From Kiritimatiellia bacterium (GTDB taxonomy: Bacteria > Verrucomicrobiota > Kiritimatiellia > UBA8416 > SLMC01), in contig SLKS01000018.1 in NCBI GenBank assembly GCA_007134465.1, positions 1 through 55,427 of the forward strand: a DNA stretch of 55,427 bases, in the 5' to 3' direction. Each line of letters opens with the position of its first letter. Within the stretch, counting starts at the first letter, position 1. A program made the translations under genes and the position numbers. The notes under the pieces were generated by a model. The model saw only the letters and a list, made by a program, of their open reading frames with translations. It searched no databases and was not told where the DNA came from. Below are positions 43,958 to 55,427 of the stretch, in pieces.

Positions 43958-43982
43958 CCCCAAACTTCGCTCGCTTTGGGGC
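43957..43982. terminator. Bidirectional hairpin between convergent purM and OMP genes
   Basis: GCCCCAAA-N10-TTTGGGGC fills the 24-bp gap between the two stop codons. Confidence 0.45.
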
Positions 43983-45514
43983 TAAAACTCGTGCCGATAG
44001 ACGAAGCGGGCGGAAACGATGTCGCGTTCGTAGGAGAGGGCGTCCGACCGGCTGTCGCGTTCGATGCGGTAGTAGTAGGCGTCGAACCGCGTTTTGCGGG
44101 TGACCGCCACGCCGGTTCCGATTCGCCCCCACCATGTGCGGTAGTCGAAGCGCCAGGCTTCGTCCGCGTCCGCGCCCTCGCGCGCCGGCCGGTTCTCGCG
44201 CAGGGAATAGCCGGTGGCGGCCCGCAGCCGGACCGTGCGGGTCAGCGGGTAGGAGACACGCAACTGGCCGGCCAGATGGCTGAACCCGTTCACGTCCGAC
44301 CGGCTCGGCTCGATGCGGTCGTAGCCAAGCTCGATGCCCGCGCGCAGCGTTTCGTATTCCCAGTTCATTTTGTATCCGAGACGGTCGGCCGTCTCGTACG
44401 CCGAACGATAGCCTTCCCGTAACGTTCGGGCCGCCTCGAATTCGTGCGTGAGCCCTTTCCACACTTCCCCCTCGAACTGCAACGTGGCGCCGCCGACCCA
44501 GGAGCCGCCGCCCCGCTCGCCGCCGCCCCGCTCGCTGCTGTCCGGCTCGCGGCTGGCCACGCGCGTGACGCCATAGCCCGCCCAGCCGCTTACGGAGGTT
44601 TGCGGAAAAAGCCGCGCCCGCGAAAACACCGTGTATTTCTCCGAAGAAAAATCGGAGCGGTGACGCGCCGCATAGTCGGTTTGCCGAAACCGGGCCTTGA
44701 GCCCCGCGATCCAGAACGGATTGAGCCGCTGTTCGTACGCCAGGCTTTCGCTCCATGTGACGCGCTCCTGATCCCGGCCGGCCGCGGTATGGCCCCAAAA
44801 ATCCTCGCGCGCGAGCGACGCCGCCAGATTCCGGTCACGATCCATGAGCCAGTCGGCGTCCAGCCCAATTCGGTTGCGAGTGTATTTCAAACGTTCGCCG
44901 CCATAGACATCCTCGATGCCGCGCGTGTCCACGTAGTCGGTCCGATGCGTGAAATGGTTGTAGGCCGTTCCGCGGACGAACGGCGTGGGCCGAAAAGACG
45001 TGGACAGCGTGGCCCATATGCCTTCGTCTGCCAGATCGAGGCGAAACGCGTCGGCTTGCGTGCCGAGCGGATAATGCTCGTAGGAAGCGGCAACCGACAC
45101 GTCCAGATCCATGTGCCGGCTGACGATCACATAGTTGCGCGTGCGCAGGGTGGTCGTCAGCGGAAACTCGGACCCGTCCTTGCGGATGGCGCCGCGCCGG
45201 TTCGCGAAGAGAAAATCGGTGCCTGCGCCCGAACTGCGCGTCCAGCGATAGCCGAATGTCTGCGTGAAGCCCACGTTCGAATAGAACGGGCCGATGCGCA
45301 ACAGGGCATAGGGCGGCACGACCGCTTCGCGATGATTGGCGAAGCGCAGCTCCTGGGCCAGGCCCGCCTGGCCGGCAACAACGCTCAGAACCGTTGCCAG
45401 CGCAATGGCCTCGATTATTCCTTTCCCGCCGTGATTTGTGCCGGCATAGCGCCCGTCTTCTTCCGACCCTTCGACAATCTTAAGAAACCGATCTTTTGCT
45501 TTCCTGCGATTCAT
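43982..45514 (-). CDS. Putative outer-membrane beta-barrel protein
   Basis: 510-aa ORF with an N-terminal signal-like segment, alternating aromatic/polar beta-strand pattern (many Y/R/T/G), and a terminal ...FVYRHEF with C-terminal Phe. Confidence 0.6.
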   Translation of the reverse strand: MNRRKAKDRFLKIVEGSEEDGRYAGTNHGGKGIIEAIALATVLSVVAGQAGLAQELRFANHREAVVPPYALLRIGPFYSNVGFTQTFGYRWTRSSGAGTDFLFANRRGAIRKDGSEFPLTTTLRTRNYVIVSRHMDLDVSVAASYEHYPLGTQADAFRLDLADEGIWATLSTSFRPTPFVRGTAYNHFTHRTDYVDTRGIEDVYGGERLKYTRNRIGLDADWLMDRDRNLAASLAREDFWGHTAAGRDQERVTWSESLAYEQRLNPFWIAGLKARFRQTDYAARHRSDFSSEKYTVFSRARLFPQTSVSGWAGYGVTRVASREPDSSERGGGERGGGSWVGGATLQFEGEVWKGLTHEFEAARTLREGYRSAYETADRLGYKMNWEYETLRAGIELGYDRIEPSRSDVNGFSHLAGQLRVSYPLTRTVRLRAATGYSLRENRPAREGADADEAWRFDYRTWWGRIGTGVAVTRKTRFDAYYYRIERDSRSDALSYERDIVSARFVYRHEF

Positions 45515-45766
45515 GGCTCTACTCTCGGGATTCGGGCCGTGAACTGGTTCATGCCGTAGTCGGATTCGAGCATGTTCACCACCAGCTCTTCCAGGGCAAC
45601 GCGGGACACTTCCATTTCACCTTCCGACGACAGGCGCTTCGTCGGCATGCACAAGACCGGCCCCTTGCAACAAACGCTGCGATTCCGCGCTGTGTATGTT
45701 CCGCTTGAACTGAGCGCGGCTATCCTCGCCCCTGGCGATCAATTCGATAACCTCTATTGCTTCCAT
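45511..45766 (-). pseudogene. Heavily deleted remnant of an AlbA_2/Schlafen-type DNA-binding, HATPase-like regulator
   Basis: Two short frames, hand-translated. MEAIEVIELIARGEDSRAQFKRNIHSAES... (45766-45617) matches the typical N-terminus (LIxxGESxxLEFKR). EVSRVALEELVVNMLESDYG matches the REALxExxxNALxHRDY motif. Only ~250 nt of a normally >1.2-kb gene remain. Confidence 0.35.
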
Positions 45767-48372
45767 AGCTGGTATATCTCCTTTCGGCGGGCAAATGCCT
45801 CGCGCCCGCCTTCCATGATCGAAACGATCGCCTTCTGAACGTCCGGGGCATCGATGCTGCCGATCTGTATGTCGCTCGCGCCGGACGCGAAGGAGCAGCC
45901 CCCGACTTGCTCGGAATCGCCAAGGACAGGGAAGTTCGCGTTGTGAGTGGCGAAAATGAATTGGACGTTTGGCTTCAGCGAACGGATGAGCTTGATTACA
46001 TCCTCAAAGATGGTCTGATTGTCAAGATCGTCTTCGGGCTGGTCGATGACGATCAGGTCGTTGTCACGCTGGCTAAGGATGAAAAGGATCAGAGCCGATG
46101 CGCGTTGCCCAAGCGAGTGATCGCGAAGATTCTTGCCATGATACATGATGTCGTAGGTGTTCGGAACCTGCCATGTAAGCAGAGATGCCTTCGCTTCATT
46201 GAAGTAACGGCGGAACGTGTCGCCCGAGTCCCCCATGCCGGAGCAGACCGTATCCAAGCTTTGGAAGAGCGAGATGAAGTCAGCATGTCCATCCAACGCT
46301 GTCTCCAGTGTCGACTCGCGGAGTCGGCTTCCGCGGAATTGCGCCTTCAGTTCCTCCAGCATTCTTTCCCGATTGCCTTTGTATTGCGGGAGAATTCGCA
46401 ATGCGTCCTGGCTCGCGTTGAGTTTTTCAATTTCGCTTTCTGCCTCCTTGAACTCCCGATGCCAGAGATCATTCAGGCGTTTGAGTTCCTTGAAAAGCAC
46501 GGCCTCCAAGGCGCTCTTTCGGCTTCGGCTCTTCCCCGTTTCGGAGAGCGCGAGTGTAACCTTCTGCAGTTTCGCATTCAGTTTCACGAAATCGTCAGGG
46601 CGTACACTGACCGTCCCGTTCTGTTGAAGTTTCTCGCTTAACTCCCGCTCGATCGCTGCGAACTCCTCCTTCAAGGCATCGCGCCGTTTCTGGATATCAT
46701 CGAACTTCTCCCGCAGCGCACGGGAGTCGGACGCAGCCTCGCCAATCGCAGTTCGGAGTTTATCCGGCACTTTGCGGATGCGGTCGAGAATGACGTTCAG
46801 CTCGTCCATCACATCCCGATTCTCTTTGGATTCCAGGCTCGGCAGCGCGGCCAGTTCGCTCTCCTGTTCGGCGAGGAACGCCCCCGCGTCGCGAACGAAT
46901 TTGTCGACCGTATCCACTGCGCGGTGCGCATGAGTCACATCGGCGTTAAACTGCACCTGGCGTTTGAGCTGCTCTTCGACGCCATGTTCGCGAAACAACT
47001 TGAGGCGGAATTCCGTGTCGCGTTTCTCGTTCCGGTACTCGGCTTCAACCGCATCGATATCCTTCAGTTTGTCCAGGCTTCCGAGCACATCAAGGACGCG
47101 TTGCTTCTGTGCCGCAATTTCGTGCCGCACAGCGTCGAGCTTTGACCCAACGAGACGTTCGACCAACTCGGATTCGGATCCCTCGCCACGTTTGACCAGC
47201 TCTTTCTGACCGAAGAAGAGCGGATTCTTGAGGGGAACAGCGATGCCCGGCTGGAGTTCGCCATTATGGTACACGTCCCGGCTTTCGTTGAGTATGCGAC
47301 GCACCTCGAAGCGACGGCCTGCGGAGTCTTCCGTTTCGACAACTACCTTCCCGCCACTCTTCAGAGCATACCTGACTAGCTCCCGCTTGTATGCGAGGTC
47401 TGTTTCATCCGCTGTGCCGGGCATGGGCAAATCAAGTCCGTACCGAAGACACTCGAGAATGGCCGACTTGCCGCTTCCTCGGATTCCGATTAGACAACTC
47501 ATCTCGGGCGAAAGATCAAGACGTTTGCCATTGAGAATTCCGCCCTCGAATCGAATGGCGCGCACCCACGAGTGCGGCTGTTTCTGTGCTATTTTTTCGG
47601 ATAGTCGGTCTGCTCCGGGTTTCAGGGAAAACTGAACCGCTTCAAACGTAAAAGCTCCTATCTTGAGGAATACGGGTTTCCCTTTGCCAACCTCCTCCAT
47701 CTTCTTCGGGTCGGAGCCCTCGACTTCCGCCGGATACCAGTCGCCCAGCCAACTCTCGACTTTCTTCTTCAGATCGCGTGTTCGGACCTTCTGAAAGGCG
47801 GCTGTGCGCAGACGGAAAAGGTCGCTCCGGCCCAGTTCTTGAATGCGTCCGCCTTTGAGACCGCCGAAGAGACCGTTATCCGCTTCGACGTGTGCGAAGA
47901 TCAGCAAGTAGTCTCGCTGGAATTTGTCCAACTCCCGAATCGTCTCCAGGAGATCATGGTTCGATCTGGCATTACTGTTGTCGCAATTCGATTGCCCCCC
48001 GAATGTCACGCTCCGAAAACCGTTGATATAGTCGGTCTGCTCCTGGTTTGATATCCACTCGTCGCTGAAGACAACAAGGGTGTGGATGCCGTTAGCCCCG
48101 TCCTTCACGGAGAGTTCGATTCCTGGCATCAGATAGATATCCTCTTTTCCAGCCGCTTTTCGCAGGGCCTTGAACTCGTCCAAATCGAACTTGTTGTGAT
48201 TTGCGATTACACCAACGCGAATATCGGCCTGCTTGAGAGCGGCGACGTATCGGACAACGAAGTCCTGTTCGTTGCCCGCATCGCTGAACTCCTTGTCGCG
48301 GTGAGTGTGCAGGTGAAAATCCGCGCGGACCCACCGACTTCCATTCTTGAAGAACTCGGTTTGGCTGCTCAT
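45754..48372 (-). CDS. PHP phosphoesterase fused to SMC/ABC-type (Rad50/SbcC-like) ATPase, a candidate defence effector
   Basis: ORF 45754..48582 trimmed to MSSQTEFFKNG (AAGGAG RBS, ATGA overlap with the upstream ORF). PHP motifs: DFHLHTH, IANHN, GIELS, FAHVE. Walker A is GIRGSGKSA. About 350 aa of coiled coil follow. Signature-like SLGQRASAL, Walker B LIVIDQPEDDLD, H-loop FATHNANF. Confidence 0.8.
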   Translation of the reverse strand: MSSQTEFFKNGSRWVRADFHLHTHRDKEFSDAGNEQDFVVRYVAALKQADIRVGVIANHNKFDLDEFKALRKAAGKEDIYLMPGIELSVKDGANGIHTLVVFSDEWISNQEQTDYINGFRSVTFGGQSNCDNSNARSNHDLLETIRELDKFQRDYLLIFAHVEADNGLFGGLKGGRIQELGRSDLFRLRTAAFQKVRTRDLKKKVESWLGDWYPAEVEGSDPKKMEEVGKGKPVFLKIGAFTFEAVQFSLKPGADRLSEKIAQKQPHSWVRAIRFEGGILNGKRLDLSPEMSCLIGIRGSGKSAILECLRYGLDLPMPGTADETDLAYKRELVRYALKSGGKVVVETEDSAGRRFEVRRILNESRDVYHNGELQPGIAVPLKNPLFFGQKELVKRGEGSESELVERLVGSKLDAVRHEIAAQKQRVLDVLGSLDKLKDIDAVEAEYRNEKRDTEFRLKLFREHGVEEQLKRQVQFNADVTHAHRAVDTVDKFVRDAGAFLAEQESELAALPSLESKENRDVMDELNVILDRIRKVPDKLRTAIGEAASDSRALREKFDDIQKRRDALKEEFAAIERELSEKLQQNGTVSVRPDDFVKLNAKLQKVTLALSETGKSRSRKSALEAVLFKELKRLNDLWHREFKEAESEIEKLNASQDALRILPQYKGNRERMLEELKAQFRGSRLRESTLETALDGHADFISLFQSLDTVCSGMGDSGDTFRRYFNEAKASLLTWQVPNTYDIMYHGKNLRDHSLGQRASALILFILSQRDNDLIVIDQPEDDLDNQTIFEDVIKLIRSLKPNVQFIFATHNANFPVLGDSEQVGGCSFASGASDIQIGSIDAPDVQKAIVSIMEGGREAFARRKEIYQLWKQ

Positions 48373-48773
48373 GGCACGCTCCTTTGAACATTGATCTGAA
48401 TCACGCATTCTGCCGGGCGTGAGTAACGGATGCCGGGCGCGGTGTCTTGTTCGGTAACGGAAAGATTCGACAGGGAGTTCGTGGCCTGAATCTTGTCGGC
48501 CACAACCGCCAGCGCCAGGCAAAACATCTCTTCCGGCAGATCGGCTGGCGGTTCGAGTTGGCTGTCGTACCGTTTTGCCCACAGATTTGTTATAGGAAAC
48601 GCTGCGGCTTCAGAACCTATAACAGCGCCAGTCTCGTCAAGCAGGTCGAATGTCACCTGCGCTTCCCATCTGTGCATGCCAGGACCGCTACGGATTTGAT
48701 GCGTTCTGTAAACCAGCTTCTTCGTGATCATATCGGCAGCGTCCTTCTGTGTTATCCGCCATGCTCGCGGCAA
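48369..48773 (-). CDS. Hypothetical protein (120-134 aa), coupled to the PHP-ATPase
   Basis: ORF 48369..48773. Its stop overlaps the PHP-ATPase ATG (ATGA). An alternative start MITKKLVY is at 48731. No family recognised. Confidence 0.5.
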   Translation of the reverse strand: MPRAWRITQKDAADMITKKLVYRTHQIRSGPGMHRWEAQVTFDLLDETGAVIGSEAAAFPITNLWAKRYDSQLEPPADLPEEMFCLALAVVADKIQATNSLSNLSVTEQDTAPGIRYSRPAECVIQINVQRSVP

Positions 48774-49327
48774 GCATTCAATTTCAGACTGCCCCTCTCC
48801 GTCACAACCACATATTCGCCGGGAGGTAAATCCATGCCTTGCAGTTTGTTCTTGATGTATTCCAGGGCATGACCGTGCAGCAGTTCAACCAATTTTCTTA
48901 GCAAAGTTTCTATCTCGATCAACTTGAATCCGTTTGGCAGCCAAGATTTGGCTTCTATTGTGATTGTTTTATCTTGCCACACAATAATTCTTGGATTTGT
49001 TGCGTATTTCACCCCGAACAATTCTACATCCGCATCAAGGTGCATGAAAACCTCGTTTCGCAACTTAAGCATGCTCTCGTGTAGCTTCTTGTTACGGGCC
49101 GAGATTAGATTTTTCGCAGGAAGACATCCCAAGTTGTTGCTGGACATAAATGGTGCGGCATAATACCCGCAGATGGCCCCAAACAGCGACATGGAGACAG
49201 GATGCTTCCCCGCCTCAATGCTTTTGTTCAGGAGCGATAATATATCCTGGGCCTTCTTGAATGAACTCATGGCATTCCATGCCAGCATGAATTCCCTGTC
49301 AGTCCGGATGGAATAGGGCTTGGCCAT
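48752..49327 (-). CDS. Hypothetical protein (191 aa), low-GC
   Basis: ORF 48752..49327. It starts 5 nt after the mod stop with a GGAGG RBS inside the mod 3' end. Hand-counted GC is ~40-42% in a ~63% GC genome. No family recognised. Confidence 0.55.
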   Translation of the reverse strand: MAKPYSIRTDREFMLAWNAMSSFKKAQDILSLLNKSIEAGKHPVSMSLFGAICGYYAAPFMSSNNLGCLPAKNLISARNKKLHESMLKLRNEVFMHLDADVELFGVKYATNPRIIVWQDKTITIEAKSWLPNGFKLIEIETLLRKLVELLHGHALEYIKNKLQGMDLPPGEYVVVTERGSLKLNACREHGG

Positions 49328-49332
49328 GGATT

Positions 49333-52008
49333 CTACACCTCCATCACCTTGGTGCTTTCCTCGCCGAACTGGGAGATGACGCGGACGGCGATTTTCTGGC
49401 CGGCGCGGGCCAGGGGGATGGGGTGCGAACGGTGGTTGTAGACGCGCTCGAAGGCTTCATCGTCCACCTCGATGCGCAGCGTCTTTTCCGCCGCGCGTTT
49501 GGCGGAGGTTCCGGCGAGCGATTCAAGCCCCTTTTTCCATTTGGCGAACTCGCCTTTGTCGCCGCCGCAGAAGAATACCTGCCGCACCACGAAGTTGCTG
49601 CCGTCGTAGTCGCTGTCCACCATCCAGTAGGCAATGTCGGCCGCGTCGCGCGATTTGACCACATCCCGGATCGGATCGTAAATGTCCAGCCCGAGAATTT
49701 CGAGTTCCACCTGCGGATGTCCGTCTTCGGATTTGCCCTTGAGCTTGCGCACGGCAATGTCCGGTTCGCCGATGGTGACGAACGAGGCGGCTTTCCTGTC
49801 CTTCTTGAGCAGGCCGTCCTGCATGAGGTCGTCGTGCATGCGCACTTTGGTGACTTCAAAGCTGCCGGCGCTCATGGTCACGTTCCGGTTGCTGATGGCG
49901 GATTCGAACGAGAAGCCCAGGATAATCAGCCAATCGGCGTCGCCGCGCGCGCGGCATTCCTTGACGGCTTCATTCACGGCCTGGCGCGAGACGGTCCCGA
50001 ATTTCGGGCCGATATGGAAGTAGGCTTTCTTTTCCACGGCGGCCGCCTGCTTCTTTTTGCCATTGCCGGACGCACCTTGATAAAAACCCTCGGCGTGAAG
50101 ATAGGCGGAGGTCAGGCGATCGACGCGGGTGAAGACCGCGTGTTCGTTCTTGATGCCGTTCTTGACGCCGGCGGATTTGAGATGCTCGAAGATGCGCTCC
50201 TCGAAAAGCTGCAGGTCGTCCGCGTCGGTAGCGGCCTGTTCCAACGCGCCGGGCGCGACCGGATCGAAATTCTGCAGCGTTTCCACCGTGAAGGGACCGG
50301 CTACGCGCAGCTTCTTCCTGTCCTCTTCGGGCTGATCGTAGAGCGTCTCGGTGGCGGGCGGCTCGTCGTTGGCAATGCTTTTGAGCGTGATGTGCGGCAC
50401 GGTCTTGTAGATGAAGCCCTGGCGGATATCCTCGCCCTGCCGATCGTAAAGCTTGTAATACGGGAACGCGGCGGTCATCAGGCGCGTCTTGGCGATGTTC
50501 AACGCAATCCGGCTGGTATCAATCGTGATCCAGCGCCGCCCCCATTGCTCCGCCACATACGCCGTCGTCCCGCTCCCGCATGTGGGGTCGAGAACCAAAT
50601 CGCCAGGGTCGGTGGTCATCAGGAGGCAGCGTTGGATTACCCTGCCAGCCGTTTGCACAACATAAACCCTGTCTGTTGCTCCGGCCGTATCGGTCCAATT
50701 GTTGCCTAAATTAAAAACAGGAAAGTCATCAAAGTATCTAACAAAAGACAATCGAGAGCCTTGGGCAACAACCCGTTTCTGTGATATCAATCTGTTCATA
50801 CCATCAAGGGTTGTTGTCCAACCTCTTGAGCCTGACGGCATATACGTGCGGCCCTCAAACTTCACAGGAAATTGCATTGCCGTTCCGATTCCTGATGGCC
50901 GCCCCTGTCGTTGAGACGTTATGTCGCCAAGCCGTAAAATTCTTGCGCCGTTGGGCAATGAGAGAGGATCACGGATTTCCGAAGGGGTCAAACGCCGCCG
51001 AGAACCGTCTTTCAGTTCAACATACTGATACATCGATCCACCAACGCCGCCCAATTCTTTATCTGAATAAAGCTGGCGATATTTCAGTGAATCACTGTTG
51101 CGAGCATACCAAATCACATAGTCAACTGTACCCGGAAGATATCTTGCAGTTTGCCCGGCCGTTTTCTGCACAGTAATCAAGCTCACAAAGTTCTCGCTAC
51201 CGAAGGCTTCATCCATCAGGCATCGGACGAGGTGAACGTTTTCGTCGGAGATTTGGACGAAGCAGGAGCCGGATTCCGCAAGCAGGTCTTTGGCGACGAG
51301 CAGGCGGTCGCGGAGGTAGCTCAGGTAGGAATGGATGCCGAGTTCCCAGGTGTCGCGGTAGGCTTTGATCTGTTCGGGTTCTCCGCAGAGGTGTTCGTCC
51401 TTGCCGTCGGTGACGTTGCGGTCGTTGAGTTTCATCTGCCAGTTGCCGCCGTACTTGATGCCGTAGGGCGGATCAATGTAGACGCATTGCACCTGACCGG
51501 CCATGCCTTCGCGCTGCAGCAGGGAGTTCATCACCAGCAGGCTGTCGCCCTGGATCAGGCGGTTGGACCAGCCGTCCTTATGGCTGTAGTATTCGGAAAT
51601 CTTCTCGATTTCGTCCATGTCGAGGGCATGGCCGAAAAGCTCGTTGGCGGAGAAGAAGTCGAGCTGGCTGACGGACGGCTCGCGCAGCCGGTAGAAGTTG
51701 CGGATGAGGACTTCGGGCGCGATGTGTTCGTGGCGGTAGAGGGACCGGATATCCACCGTCAACCGGTCTTCGGCGTCTTCCATGCCGTATTTGCGCATCC
51801 AGAACAGTTCCGGATCCTGTCCGCGATGCACCACCGGGTTTTTCGGATAGGCGGCTTTCGGCTGCGCGTGTTTCACCTTCGGGCTGGCGGTCTCGGCGCC
51901 GGCCTCCTCGCGCGATGGAATATGCGCGCGCTTGCTGCTTTTCGCATGCTTGATTGCGTCAACGGCCATGGTTCTTCTCTTCCCATCTGCAATAATCGCA
52001 TCCGTCAA
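49333..52008 (-). CDS. mod: Site-specific DNA methyltransferase, beta-class N6A/N4C (Type III Mod-like), 891 aa
   Basis: Motif [17 protein letters not shown] precedes motif [27 protein letters not shown] (order IV..TRD..I = beta class). It has long N- and C-terminal extensions. Confidence 0.88.
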
Positions 52009-52056: not shown

Positions 52057-52932
52057 CTAGCCAGCCTCCGGGAAACCCATTTTTTCGGTCACAGGCAACT
52101 GTTGCTCCCGCAACAAAGCCATCAGGCGATGCGTCCATTGATTCTGCGGCTCGACAATATCAACAATATGCGCGAGAAAAACCAAAGTGTTGTATACATT
52201 GCGACGACTTAGCGGGTTCACGCTGTTAGCAATGGTCGAGGGATGCCGTTTGGGTATGGCCACAGTTATGGTAAAACGCCTGTTCCAGAGTCGGGCATGA
52301 TGCGCACATAGATTGCGAATGTACACCCCGTGTTCCAGCAGCGATTTCATAAGATCAGGGCTAATGCCGTAGATTCCGGCTATCTTTTTCCGGTCATGTT
52401 CATGGCCTATGTTCTCGTAGAAACGGCTGAGCAACCCAAACGTCATGATTTCGCATACAGCCCAGATCGGCGGCCGATGCGTGTTGTGTTTGTTTTTGAA
52501 ATGCGAAACAAACACCTCGTGACTGCGCGCCAATTCATCGTCGAGTCGATTCAATGCGCTGGTATGTCGCTGCGCATTCCTGAAAACAGACGGGATTTCG
52601 TAAGCCTGAGCGCCATATTCGTGTCCAAGGATATACGCCCAGTGCGAACGAACCGATATCTCCAGCCTTTTCAATGCCTCCATTACCAGCGTTCGCAATT
52701 GCCGATCGAAACAGTACAATCCCCACATGTTGCCAAATGTAGTCCCTGGCAGAAAACGATCCGGTTTTCCCGGCTCTGTCAACGGAAAACGATAGGCCGA
52801 TATACGATAGTAATTGTGGTGCGCAAGACAGTGCAGAGCAAAAGACCTGTTTTCAACAGTTAGGCCTCGGCCCTCAAGGATCGCAAGCTGCTCTTCATAG
52901 GTTTTTGCGGGTTTGCTGAAGCTCATTGGCAT
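52057..52932 (-). CDS. Abi_2 (AbiD/AbiF-like) abortive-infection family protein
   Basis: 291-aa ORF. Contains YEEQLAILEGRGL, HHNYYRISAY, FDRQLRTLVMEALKRLEISVRSHWAY and IRNLCAHHARLWNR, the characteristic Abi_2 pattern. GC is ~50%. Confidence 0.85.
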   Translation of the reverse strand: MPMSFSKPAKTYEEQLAILEGRGLTVENRSFALHCLAHHNYYRISAYRFPLTEPGKPDRFLPGTTFGNMWGLYCFDRQLRTLVMEALKRLEISVRSHWAYILGHEYGAQAYEIPSVFRNAQRHTSALNRLDDELARSHEVFVSHFKNKHNTHRPPIWAVCEIMTFGLLSRFYENIGHEHDRKKIAGIYGISPDLMKSLLEHGVYIRNLCAHHARLWNRRFTITVAIPKRHPSTIANSVNPLSRRNVYNTLVFLAHIVDIVEPQNQWTHRLMALLREQQLPVTEKMGFPEAG

Positions 52933-53052: not shown

Positions 53053-55427
53053 TCATAACCCTGCGATTTTCGCGCGCAACTGGTTCTTGATGTCGCGGAT
53101 ATCGTTGGCCACTTCGATAAAGGCCCATGCGGGCTGGCCGTATTTTTCGCGCACGGCATTGACTGCCGGCAGCCAGCGGTTCTCCACATGCCATTTCTTT
53201 TCCGCCTTTTCCTTGTTCATCCCGGTTACCTCGACAATCAGATTCACCGGGCCGGCGTCGGTTTCGCAACGGGCGATGAAGTCCGGAAAATAGCGCTTGT
53301 CCTCGCCTGCCTGCACATAGGGGATCGAGAAACCGAGAAACGCGTTCTTGACGTATCTGCCGACAAGGCCTTCGTCGGCCAGTTCTTCCAGCGTCTTGGC
53401 CGCAATCTGTTCCCAGCTTTCGGTATCGGCCACAACGCAGTTGACATGACTGCGCGCGGTCGGGAATACCGGCCGGGTGGTGAGCCCGTGCACATGGCGG
53501 GTGCTGCCGACGGGGTTGTAGTAATTGAGGATGGGCAGAACCACATCGTCCCCGCGACGGCCGGACTGGATGGCCCGGACGATTCCGCAGAGATATTTTT
53601 CAGGGCTGTAGCACCACAGCAACTGCTTGAAACAGTCGCCATAGCATACCACGCGCGTGCGATACCACTCCTCGACAATGGCCCTGAGCTTGCCGAACTT
53701 CTGAAACTCGACATTGCCGTCTTCGTCCTTGAAGCTGTGCGCAAGCAGCTCGCGGGCGATCCTGTAGATCACCTGCTGGTCGCGCAGCTCGCGCAAGTCG
53801 TCCACGCCAAGCTCTTCCTCGGCATCGGAGACCGCTGTCGCCAGGACGGTACGGGTCGGAATGTTGGGGCCGATCTCGAAGTTCTCGATGTGCGAGAAAT
53901 CGGCGGTGATTTCGCCGTCCGGCGTTTCCACGCGGTAGCCGTCCACATTCAGGAACTCGATTTCATAGTCGCTCTGCCGCTCGGGCAGCGCGCGAATAAC
54001 CGTCTGCTCGCGCGGGGGAGGCGGCGCGGACTTGCCGCCCTTGAACATTTTGAACGGCACGCCGATGATATGCGCATATTCCGGCGGGAACTTCCAGGTC
54101 TTGATGCGGCGTTTGTCATCGGTCGGCAATCCGGCCTTGTCGTATCCCTGCAAGTAGTAGTTCTTGCGACGCAGGGCGCGTCCGGCCACCTGCTCGCACA
54201 GAAGCTGAGAACCGAAGGCGCGAATGCCGACTATATGGGTGACGGTATTGGCGTCCCAGCCTTCGGTCAGCATCGAAACCGAAACCACGCAGCGAATGTG
54301 CGCCCCGAGCGTGCCGGGCTTGCCGACGGTGTTGACAACCTCGCGCAGGATTTCGGCGTCGGCGATGTTTTCCGCCGCCCCCGCGCCGTGCAGCCGTGCG
54401 TAATCGCGCTTGAACAGTTCGATTTCCGAGGCGAAGACGGTTTTGAAATCGTCGCCGACCTGATCGGAATTCTCCAGCGCGTCGCTGTCAATCAGCAATG
54501 TCGGCGAACGTTCGAGCGGGTTCCCGGTGTTTTCGTCGTAATTGGAGAACAGCGGCAGATTGCCGCCAATCGAAACAGTGTTGCCTTCGCGGTCGATCGA
54601 ACGTTCATATCCGGCCATCCATTTGTAGACTTCCTTGGACACCGAAACATTGTTGCAGACGACGATAAAGACCGGCGGGGAGTCGAAAAGCTCGCGAGTA
54701 CGCTCGAAATCCTCCTCGTAATGCCGATAGAACTGCCGCAAGGCCACGGCCAGCAGCTCCGGCATGGCGGGCGGAGTTTCCAGCAGGGTCTGTCCGGCTT
54801 CCTTGGCCGCCTTGCGCCGGGCTTTCATGCCTTTCTTGGGCAATCGGTCTTTTACATGCTCGTACAGATTCCGCAGCACGGGCATTTTCAGTTCCTGGGT
54901 ATTGTCGCTTTCAGGCAGAAACGGGATTTTGACCAGGCCGGATTCGATCGCCTCGATCAGCCCGAAATCCGACGCCACCCACTCGAAGAGCGCATAGGCT
55001 TGGTGTCCCGAACCGGTCAAGTAATACGGGGTGGCGCTCAGATCGTAGATGTGGCCGACCTTGAAGCGTTTGCACAATTCTTTCAACCCGTTGTACCAAA
55101 CGGCGGCGCGCGCGTTTTCCTCGGCGGTGTTTTCGCCTTCGGTCCGCTGCCCCTTGCCGATGGGCTTGTAGCAATGATGCGCTTCGTCGTTCATGACAAG
55201 CAGGCGCGACCCGCTTTTGAACTTGCCCAGCATGCGGCGCATCGCCTGGCTGTAGTCCTCGCGAACATCCTGCTTGTTGCCGGCAGCGTCGAGTTTGCCG
55301 TCAAACGGAGTGCGCTTGTTGCCTTGCAAGGCGCGCGGCTCGAATCCGTGATAATTGGCGATGACAATTTTCGCGTTCAGTCCCGGCAGCAGCTTGCGCC
55401 AGCCGGGCGGGACAAGTGTGCGCTGGC
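53053..55427 (-). CDS. res: Type III restriction Res-like helicase-nuclease (5' end outside window)
   Basis: ORF 53053..55329. The frame stays open to the window edge (hand translation ...[21 protein letters not shown]). Motifs: DEAH (VMNDEAHHC), SAT (DLSATPY), [20 protein letters not shown]-terminal PD-(D/E)xK-like YFPDF...IVEVTGMNK is present. Walker A must lie upstream of the window. Confidence 0.85.

Follow-up and report, generated by a model that had tools for sequence, protein, structure and literature searches.

What do the two small open reading frames (ORFs) between a DNA methyltransferase gene and a PHP-ATPase gene encode in contig SLKS01000018.1 of a Kiritimatiellia bacterium? The window analysed here is the whole stretch of 55,427 nucleotides (nt), whose numbering is used throughout; all genes discussed lie on its minus strand and are read from the right window edge leftwards. 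The original prediction, made from the sequence alone, described both frames as unrecognisable and saw no familiar catalytic motif in either. For the first of them, ORF191, neither description held, as 31 relatives and a HEPN signature with an Rx5H motif of the HEPN type were found. The reading that we favour as a whole, with a probability of roughly 60%, is that ORF191 is a HEPN ribonuclease (RNase) gene carried as cargo behind the methyltransferase gene mod, that the second frame, ORF120, is an orphan, and that the PHP-ATPase gene trlF belongs to a separate module. The gene and its motif are located as follows.

48752..49327, minus strand: ORF191, 191 amino acids (aa), ATG start, 31 homologous representatives, guanine-cytosine (GC) content 46.9%
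49034..49060, minus strand: codons of the R90-N91-x4-H96-x-D98 motif, the predicted HEPN RNase active site, from the 31-sequence alignment

ORF191 belongs to a sparse family with a HEPN-type motif

The sequence confirmed the 191-aa frame with its ATG start at 48752-49327. As had been described, this ATG stands 5 nt (AATCC) past the TAG stop codon of mod, and a GGAGG in the 3' end of mod lies 10 nt upstream of it. The frame had also been singled out for its low GC content, estimated at about 40%. It is indeed the lowest-GC stretch of the window at both the 300-nt and the 576-nt scales, but the measured value is 46.9%, with 42.0% in its lowest 300-nt window, compared with 61.8% for the window as a whole. 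An independent metagenome assembly of the locus (ENA contig ERZ27301263 k141_2761647) is identical to the window across ORF191 and ORF120.

A word-index search of 5.8 billion proteins with ORF191 returned the query itself as the sole match. An exhaustive phmmer search of 1.84 billion cluster representatives retrieved 31 relatives at E ≤ 1e-3, nine of them at E ≤ 1e-10, with lengths of 114-214 aa and mostly of 160-214 aa. Because of these 31 homologous representatives, ORF191 stands above chance and can be taken as a real gene. The original prediction would have regarded the frames as spurious if neither recurred in another genome and evidence of expression was lacking as well; ORF191 is conserved in the 31 representatives, and for ORF120 no homologue was found. 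ORF191 was assigned to no family in PHROGs, NCBIfam or PADLOC, and a tblastn search of phages and viral contigs with it returned nothing.

HEPN domains are defined as four-helix up-down bundles, with frequent inserts between helices 2 and 3, in which an Rx4-6H motif ends helix 3 and a polar residue (N, D or H) follows the arginine; an acidic residue in helix 2 (Ex3[KR]) is a feature of many HEPN families, not all (PMC3710099). In the alignment of the 31 sequences, P59, F60, H83, R90 and H96 are invariant, and Y56 and D98 are nearly so. R90 and H96 are separated by five residues in 31/31 sequences, within an ungapped R-[NDH]-x4-H-x-D block that agrees with Rx4-6H. R90 is followed by N (16 sequences), D (9), H (4) or K (2), mostly one of the polar residues named in the definition.

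HEPN_AbiU2 (PF18734) was the sole recurrent Pfam match, being hit by 10 of the 31 members with a best E value of 2.7e-4. It was also the top match of the family consensus sequence (E 1.7e-5), whose 24.9 bits stay below the gathering cut-off of 26.8; ORF191 itself reached 13.4 bits. The alignments covered model positions ~109-165 (ORF191) and ~110-149 (other members and the consensus) of 193. The members' matches always lay at positions ~110-140, the helix of the motif. Protein matches on plasmids, all annotated as 'hypothetical protein', gave no bridge from ORF191 to true AbiU2.

Predicted fold of ORF191

Structure prediction followed by Foldseek, as had been proposed for both frames, gave a four-helix bundle for ORF191 and no significant structural neighbour for either. 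In the AlphaFold2 (AF2) model of ORF191 (predicted local distance difference test, pLDDT, 74.6; predicted template modelling score, pTM, 0.71), four long helices span residues 10-38, 42-60, 77-97 and 136-162, with a loop or short helix (61-76) between helices 2 and 3, a beta-hairpin past helix 3 and a C-terminal hairpin. The Rx5H motif (90-96) is placed at the C-terminal end of helix 3 (77-97), and helix 2 carries the conserved Y56, P59 and F60. Because the bundle, the insert, the place of the motif and the polar residue each fit the published definition (PMC3710099), the layout is read as that of a HEPN domain.

Several results weigh against this assignment. The AF2 model was built on an alignment of just 8 usable sequences. 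Foldseek searches of PDB and BFVD with the model returned nothing significant (none at E ≤ 0.001 in PDB), and the HEPN entries 2hsb, 3o10, 3c18 and 9bj5 appeared at E 0.7-3.4 among weak generic helical bundles; for 2hsb the match was weak, with template modelling scores of 0.34/0.45. A profile search of PDB sequences with the family was empty, and no PADLOC defence model matches the family. The PF18734 matches span about 30-40 residues round the motif and all lie below the gathering score, and the conserved acidic residue of helix 2 (Ex3[KR]) is not evident in residues 42-60 of the 31-sequence alignment. Finally, the 12 distinct neighbourhoods of ORF191 homologues that were inspected have no conserved partner or fixed context, their neighbours being mutually unrelated.

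Since the structural searches do not single out HEPN, and H83, H96 and D98 are fully or almost fully conserved, ORF191 might instead be a helical-bundle metal-dependent enzyme or a non-catalytic binder, with these three residues as metal ligands. We regard this as improbable. R90 is also invariant, and as in HEPN domains it stands at the end of helix 3 with a polar residue after it. HEPN_AbiU2 was the only family to recur among the matches, which included neither DinB-like nor other metalloenzyme families.

Judged by homology and by the model, ORF191 is thus a genuine gene, apparently of a small, sparse and unannotated HEPN-type (AbiU2-like) family, and is a predicted RNase. It resembles lactococcal AbiU2 (PF18734) in the RN-x-x-x-x-H catalytic-helix region and in size (~190 aa), whereas its motif lies ~37 residues nearer the N-terminus than in the Pfam model, and beta-hairpins are predicted after helix 3 and at the C-terminus. 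Because the HEPN_AbiU2 scores remain sub-threshold, the sequences are best filed as an AbiU2-like but distinct HEPN family, and not as members of PF18734.

Neighbourhoods of the homologues

ORF191 homologues occur in the kind of context that characterises defence islands and mobile elements. One homologue lies behind a Mrr-type nuclease gene, one beside a PIN toxin-antitoxin pair, one, on an Agrobacterium plasmid, at the end of a GASH/GTPase conflict system, and one beside IS630 and integrase genes. Neither TrlF nor an ORF120-like gene was present in any of the 12 neighbourhoods.

The closest homologues are located 10-60 nt ahead of a small gene set: in one case a TIR_2 protein and a 171-aa membrane-like protein (locus 549-2273), in the other a T5orf172 nuclease and an Imm5-like protein (locus 38-2068). 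These sets could be small uncharacterised defence cassettes.

Two cargo slots in the res-mod operon

Upstream of ORF191, the operon consists of the following genes.

53053..55427, minus strand: res, 5' end beyond the window edge, BPTD_3080 family, NF046055 2.6e-225
52057..52932, minus strand: abiD (Abi_2), PF07751 1.4e-52, PADLOC AbiD 2.9e-73, GC 50.2%
49333..52008, minus strand: mod, type III-like N6/N4 DNA methyltransferase, PF01555 8e-28, PADLOC MTase_III 5.5e-189

The product of res scored 750.5 bits against NF046055 (cut-off 800); since the gene extends beyond the window, the match is limited to model positions 265-969. Together with the adjacent PF01555 mod gene, res constitutes a res-mod operon of the BPTD_3080 type. 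The abiD gene between res and mod itself belongs to a HEPN family, and the operon thus contains two different HEPN cargo genes. GC content within the operon is ~58-59%; the first slot is filled by abiD (~50%), and the second by ORF191 (~47%) together with ORF120. An hhalign comparison of the ORF191 family profile with the AbiD of the window gave a meaningless result (probability 0.5).

Related mod genes were examined at seven plasmid loci. Six have a BPTD_3080 res gene alongside; in the seventh (Chlorohelix), a DUF4209 protein is encoded upstream of mod and the record begins there. Two Rhodococcus operons are res-mod pairs without cargo. Cargo between res and mod was present in three of the seven loci, in the form of a 173-aa hypothetical protein, a UPF0175-DUF3368 toxin-antitoxin pair (Picosynechococcus PCC 7002 pAQ5) and a 307-aa hypothetical protein. 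Directly behind mod, cargo was present in five of the seven: DUF4747 and further genes; a pair of the cyclic-oligonucleotide-based anti-phage signalling system (CBASS); a 624-aa protein; a 273-aa protein, a 110-aa protein and an exonuclease; and a 314-aa protein. No cargo gene of these seven loci matched the ORF191 profile or ORF120. BPTD_3080 res-mod operons therefore have two recurrent slots, in the res/mod gap and behind mod, which take up unrelated genes. DUF2075 is also among the slot contents on plasmids.

Restriction-modification (R-M) operons are known to house HEPN genes, AbiU2 and AbiD/Abi2 being listed among them (PMC3710099, Table 1), and for such embedded HEPN genes a PrrC-like role as second-line, suicidal RNases was proposed (PMC3710099). 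ORF191 resembles the HEPN genes of R-M operons described there (PrrC-EcoprrI; Abi2/AbiD/AbiF) in being small, co-oriented and tightly packed, with an AbiD in the same operon. PrrC is an ABC-ATPase-HEPN fusion that belongs to a type Ic system and is under the control of that enzyme, whereas ORF191 is a bare HEPN domain behind a type III-like mod.

Following these observations, we infer that ORF191 was probably gained separately, as low-GC cargo, in the slot directly behind mod of the BPTD_3080-type (type III-like) operon. It would be co-transcribed with mod, and its translation from the mod transcript is probable. As in characterised HEPN proteins, R90, N91 and H96 would make it a metal-independent RNase, which may add a second-line layer of the abortive-infection type alongside restriction. 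This suicidal mechanism is adopted from the proposal for R-M-embedded HEPN genes in PMC3710099.

Two further observations concern the operon. GC content dips to 47-50% inside mod (50650-51250), which may mark an exchanged target-recognition region. At the 3' end of abiD (position 52064), the ENA assembly and the window differ by a 1-nt insertion or deletion, which changes the product (291 aa versus 301 aa).

The PHP-ATPase gene as a separate module

Downstream of ORF191, the order of features is as follows.

48369..48731, minus strand: ORF120, an orphan, ATG start, with an alternative TTG start at 48773 that gives 134 aa
45754..48372, minus strand: trlF, PHP domain and ABC/AAA-like ATPase, NF045780 502.9 bits (cut-off 350), PADLOC Ppl 3e-26
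45523..45766, minus strand: trlG remnant (AlbA_2/HATPase_c_4), tblastn and blastn fragments

By its NF045780 score the PHP-ATPase is a member of the TrlF family, with kinship to the Ppl defence gene. In Photorhabdus, the temperature restriction locus (TRL) is an operon trlR-trlF-trlG, in which TrlG consists of AlbA_2 and HATPase_c_4 (bioRxiv 10.1101/2020.06.02.129163). On plasmids, TrlF was found in 235 records; each of the three loci inspected has an overlapping TrlG-type gene after it, and this TrlF/TrlG annotation pair recurs among the plasmid matches listed. A TrlF with 80% identity in a Thermoguttaceae metagenome-assembled genome is likewise part of a trlF-trlG pair, located between housekeeping genes and accompanied by neither ORF191 nor ORF120. 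In the window, residues 1-29, 132-152, 269-292 and ~316-385 of the Thermoguttaceae TrlG were detected in this order within ~240 nt by tblastn, with which blastn agreed. The TrlFG module has decayed here and trlF is left alone; trlF is a separate, self-contained module whose partner trlG was lost.

The original prediction had proposed that both small frames encode accessory factors of this ATPase, such as a sensor, an adaptor or an antitoxin, or immunity factors. Of this proposal, the setting is supported: both frames sit in a co-directional defence operon, and ORF191 belongs to HEPN, a defence-associated superfamily. The specific attachment to the ATPase could be argued from the ATGA overlap between ORF120 and trlF and from the common direction of all genes, but we consider it very improbable. 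No homologue of ORF191 or ORF120 lies near the TrlF relatives of 80% and 51% identity or near the three plasmid trlFG loci, and reciprocally no TrlF lies near the ORF191 homologues, so the co-occurrence that had been suggested as a check was not observed. The conserved partner of TrlF is the downstream trlG and nothing upstream, and DNA homology to the closest (Thermoguttaceae) relative sets in 28 nt into trlF and stops just beyond it. ORF120 occupies the trlR position of the TRL operon, but it is unlike the 79-aa trlR-position protein of a Yersinia plasmid (E 40) and matches no helix-turn-helix (HTH) family, and its identification as TrlR was rejected; ORF191 has no counterpart in TRL at all, and trlG is represented in the window by fragments only. 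A 4-nt overlap of trlF with the gene upstream was also seen with hsdR in Klebsiella. As TrlF is a separate module without ORF191 or ORF120 relatives at its loci, the link to the ATPase is unsupported.

The Klebsiella case is the Klebsiella quasipneumoniae IncA plasmid NZ_CP055012.1 (1017-10616), in which the order hsdR-trlF-trlG-hsdS-AAA-hsdM places trlF-trlG inside a type I R-M operon; a 4-nt overlap joins its trlF to the hsdR stop, like the coupling of ORF120 and trlF in the window. The ENA assembly differs from the window by one single-nucleotide polymorphism in trlF (position 45899). Directly downstream of the trlG remnant, a 510-aa ORF (43982-45514, minus strand) with host-like GC content (~65%) and a good coding score had no match in Pfam, NCBIfam, PADLOC or PHROGs. 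It is situated at the boundary between island and chromosome, next to purM.

ORF120 between the cargo and the next module

The second frame had been described as a 134-aa ORF at 48369-48773 that ends in an overlap with the PHP-ATPase. This TTG-initiated frame is present, and its TGA does overlap the ATG of trlF (ATGA). A start at ATG 48731 is likelier, though, as the gene callers of NCBI, ENA and Logan all choose it, giving 120 aa, and the coding score of the 14 codons added by the TTG start is negative. ORF120 is co-directional with ORF191 and 20 nt away from it. Single-sequence AF2 prediction gave a mixed alpha/beta fold (pLDDT 65, pTM 0.59), and Foldseek with this model returned nothing significant from PDB. 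ORF120 had no match in Pfam, NCBIfam, PADLOC or PHROGs, and searches of plasmids, phages, PDB sequences and viral contigs were empty. In the word-index search of 5.8 billion proteins it matched only itself. Its orphan status is provisional, because the same word-index search missed every ORF191 relative, and the exhaustive phmmer search covered ORF191 only. A further candidate explanation, in which an upstream R-M gene moved together with trlF and left ORF120 as its C-terminal remnant, was rejected, as tblastn was empty in the 235 TrlF-bearing plasmids.

Is ORF120 a gene at all? The 379 nt between ORF191 and trlF might be recombination-junction or leader sequence that is open by chance, an alternative to which we give a substantial, though minority, weight. 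All searches with ORF120 failed to return a homologue, the region is also covered by an antisense ORF of 141 aa, and in its place the closest relative of trlF has 568 nt of non-coding-looking sequence upstream. In Markov simulations, a stop-free frame over this gap arose by chance in ~2% of cases for a given frame and in 12-15% for any of the six. On the other side, island codon usage ranks the ORF120 frame first among the six (0.131 versus ≤ -0.08), with a score similar to those of ORF191 (0.15) and abiD (0.05). The overlap with trlF is exact, the three independent gene callers agree, and the single-sequence model reached the pTM given above. No Rfam family was found in the region as a whole, and its RNA folding z-score was only -1.9, which is not significant. 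Promoter- and terminator-like sites there occurred at chance frequency, and no meaningful repeats were found. Taken together, these results weakly favour ORF120 being more than chance. We retain it as an orphan, possibly spurious but probably real, which fills the junction between the cargo and the next module.

If ORF120 is a gene, its adjacency to ORF191 raises the question of a toxin-antitoxin-like pair, in which the HEPN RNase toxin would be held inactive until infection by a novel acidic antitoxin or immunity protein. The two are small, adjacent and co-directional genes, ORF191 is basic with an isoelectric point (pI) of 9.2 and ORF120 acidic with a pI of 5.3, and a HEPN toxin generally requires something to neutralise it (PMC3710099). 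ORF120 also has codon usage like that of coding sequence, and its single-sequence model is moderately confident. A small HEPN protein beside a small acidic ORF is moreover reminiscent of the HEPN-MNT toxin-antitoxin systems (type II/VII). Unlike in those pairs, ORF120 carries neither an MNT domain nor any other known antitoxin domain and has no homologues, and the ORF191 family has no conserved pairing, with an ORF120-like gene or any conserved neighbour in 0 of the 12 neighbourhoods. As a type II system, too, the locus lacks both a pairing conserved among homologues and a recognised antitoxin domain. The order of toxin before antitoxin is also the less common one. We therefore judge such a pair unlikely. 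The likeliest specific role of ORF120, named with low confidence, is that of a cognate inhibitor of ORF191; it is conceivable because an acidic protein adjoins a basic one, and no conserved pairing backs it. More speculative still is the idea that the new HEPN family is restrained by a new antitoxin or immunity fold, ORF120, the two acting as a fail-safe when type III-like restriction or TrlF is overwhelmed.

Implications

On the reading favoured here, with ORF191 as HEPN cargo behind mod, the locus is an ordinary defence-island mosaic with one new HEPN variant and one unexplained orphan. The arrangement of ORF191 is of a known kind; the family itself is new. The practical gain is modest, as it has been clear since 2013 that R-M operons can contain HEPN genes, and ORF120 gives no comparative handle. 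If the fail-safe of ORF191 and ORF120 were true, it would amount to a new HEPN abortive-infection module in a recurrent cargo slot of BPTD_3080 res-mod operons. A gene that was supposedly unrecognisable becomes a testable predicted RNase with the named catalytic residues R90 and H96. It adds a rare and unannotated branch to the HEPN superfamily, one that word-index searches, Pfam thresholds and PADLOC alike had missed, and the two slots of BPTD_3080 res-mod operons could be mined for new defence cargo.

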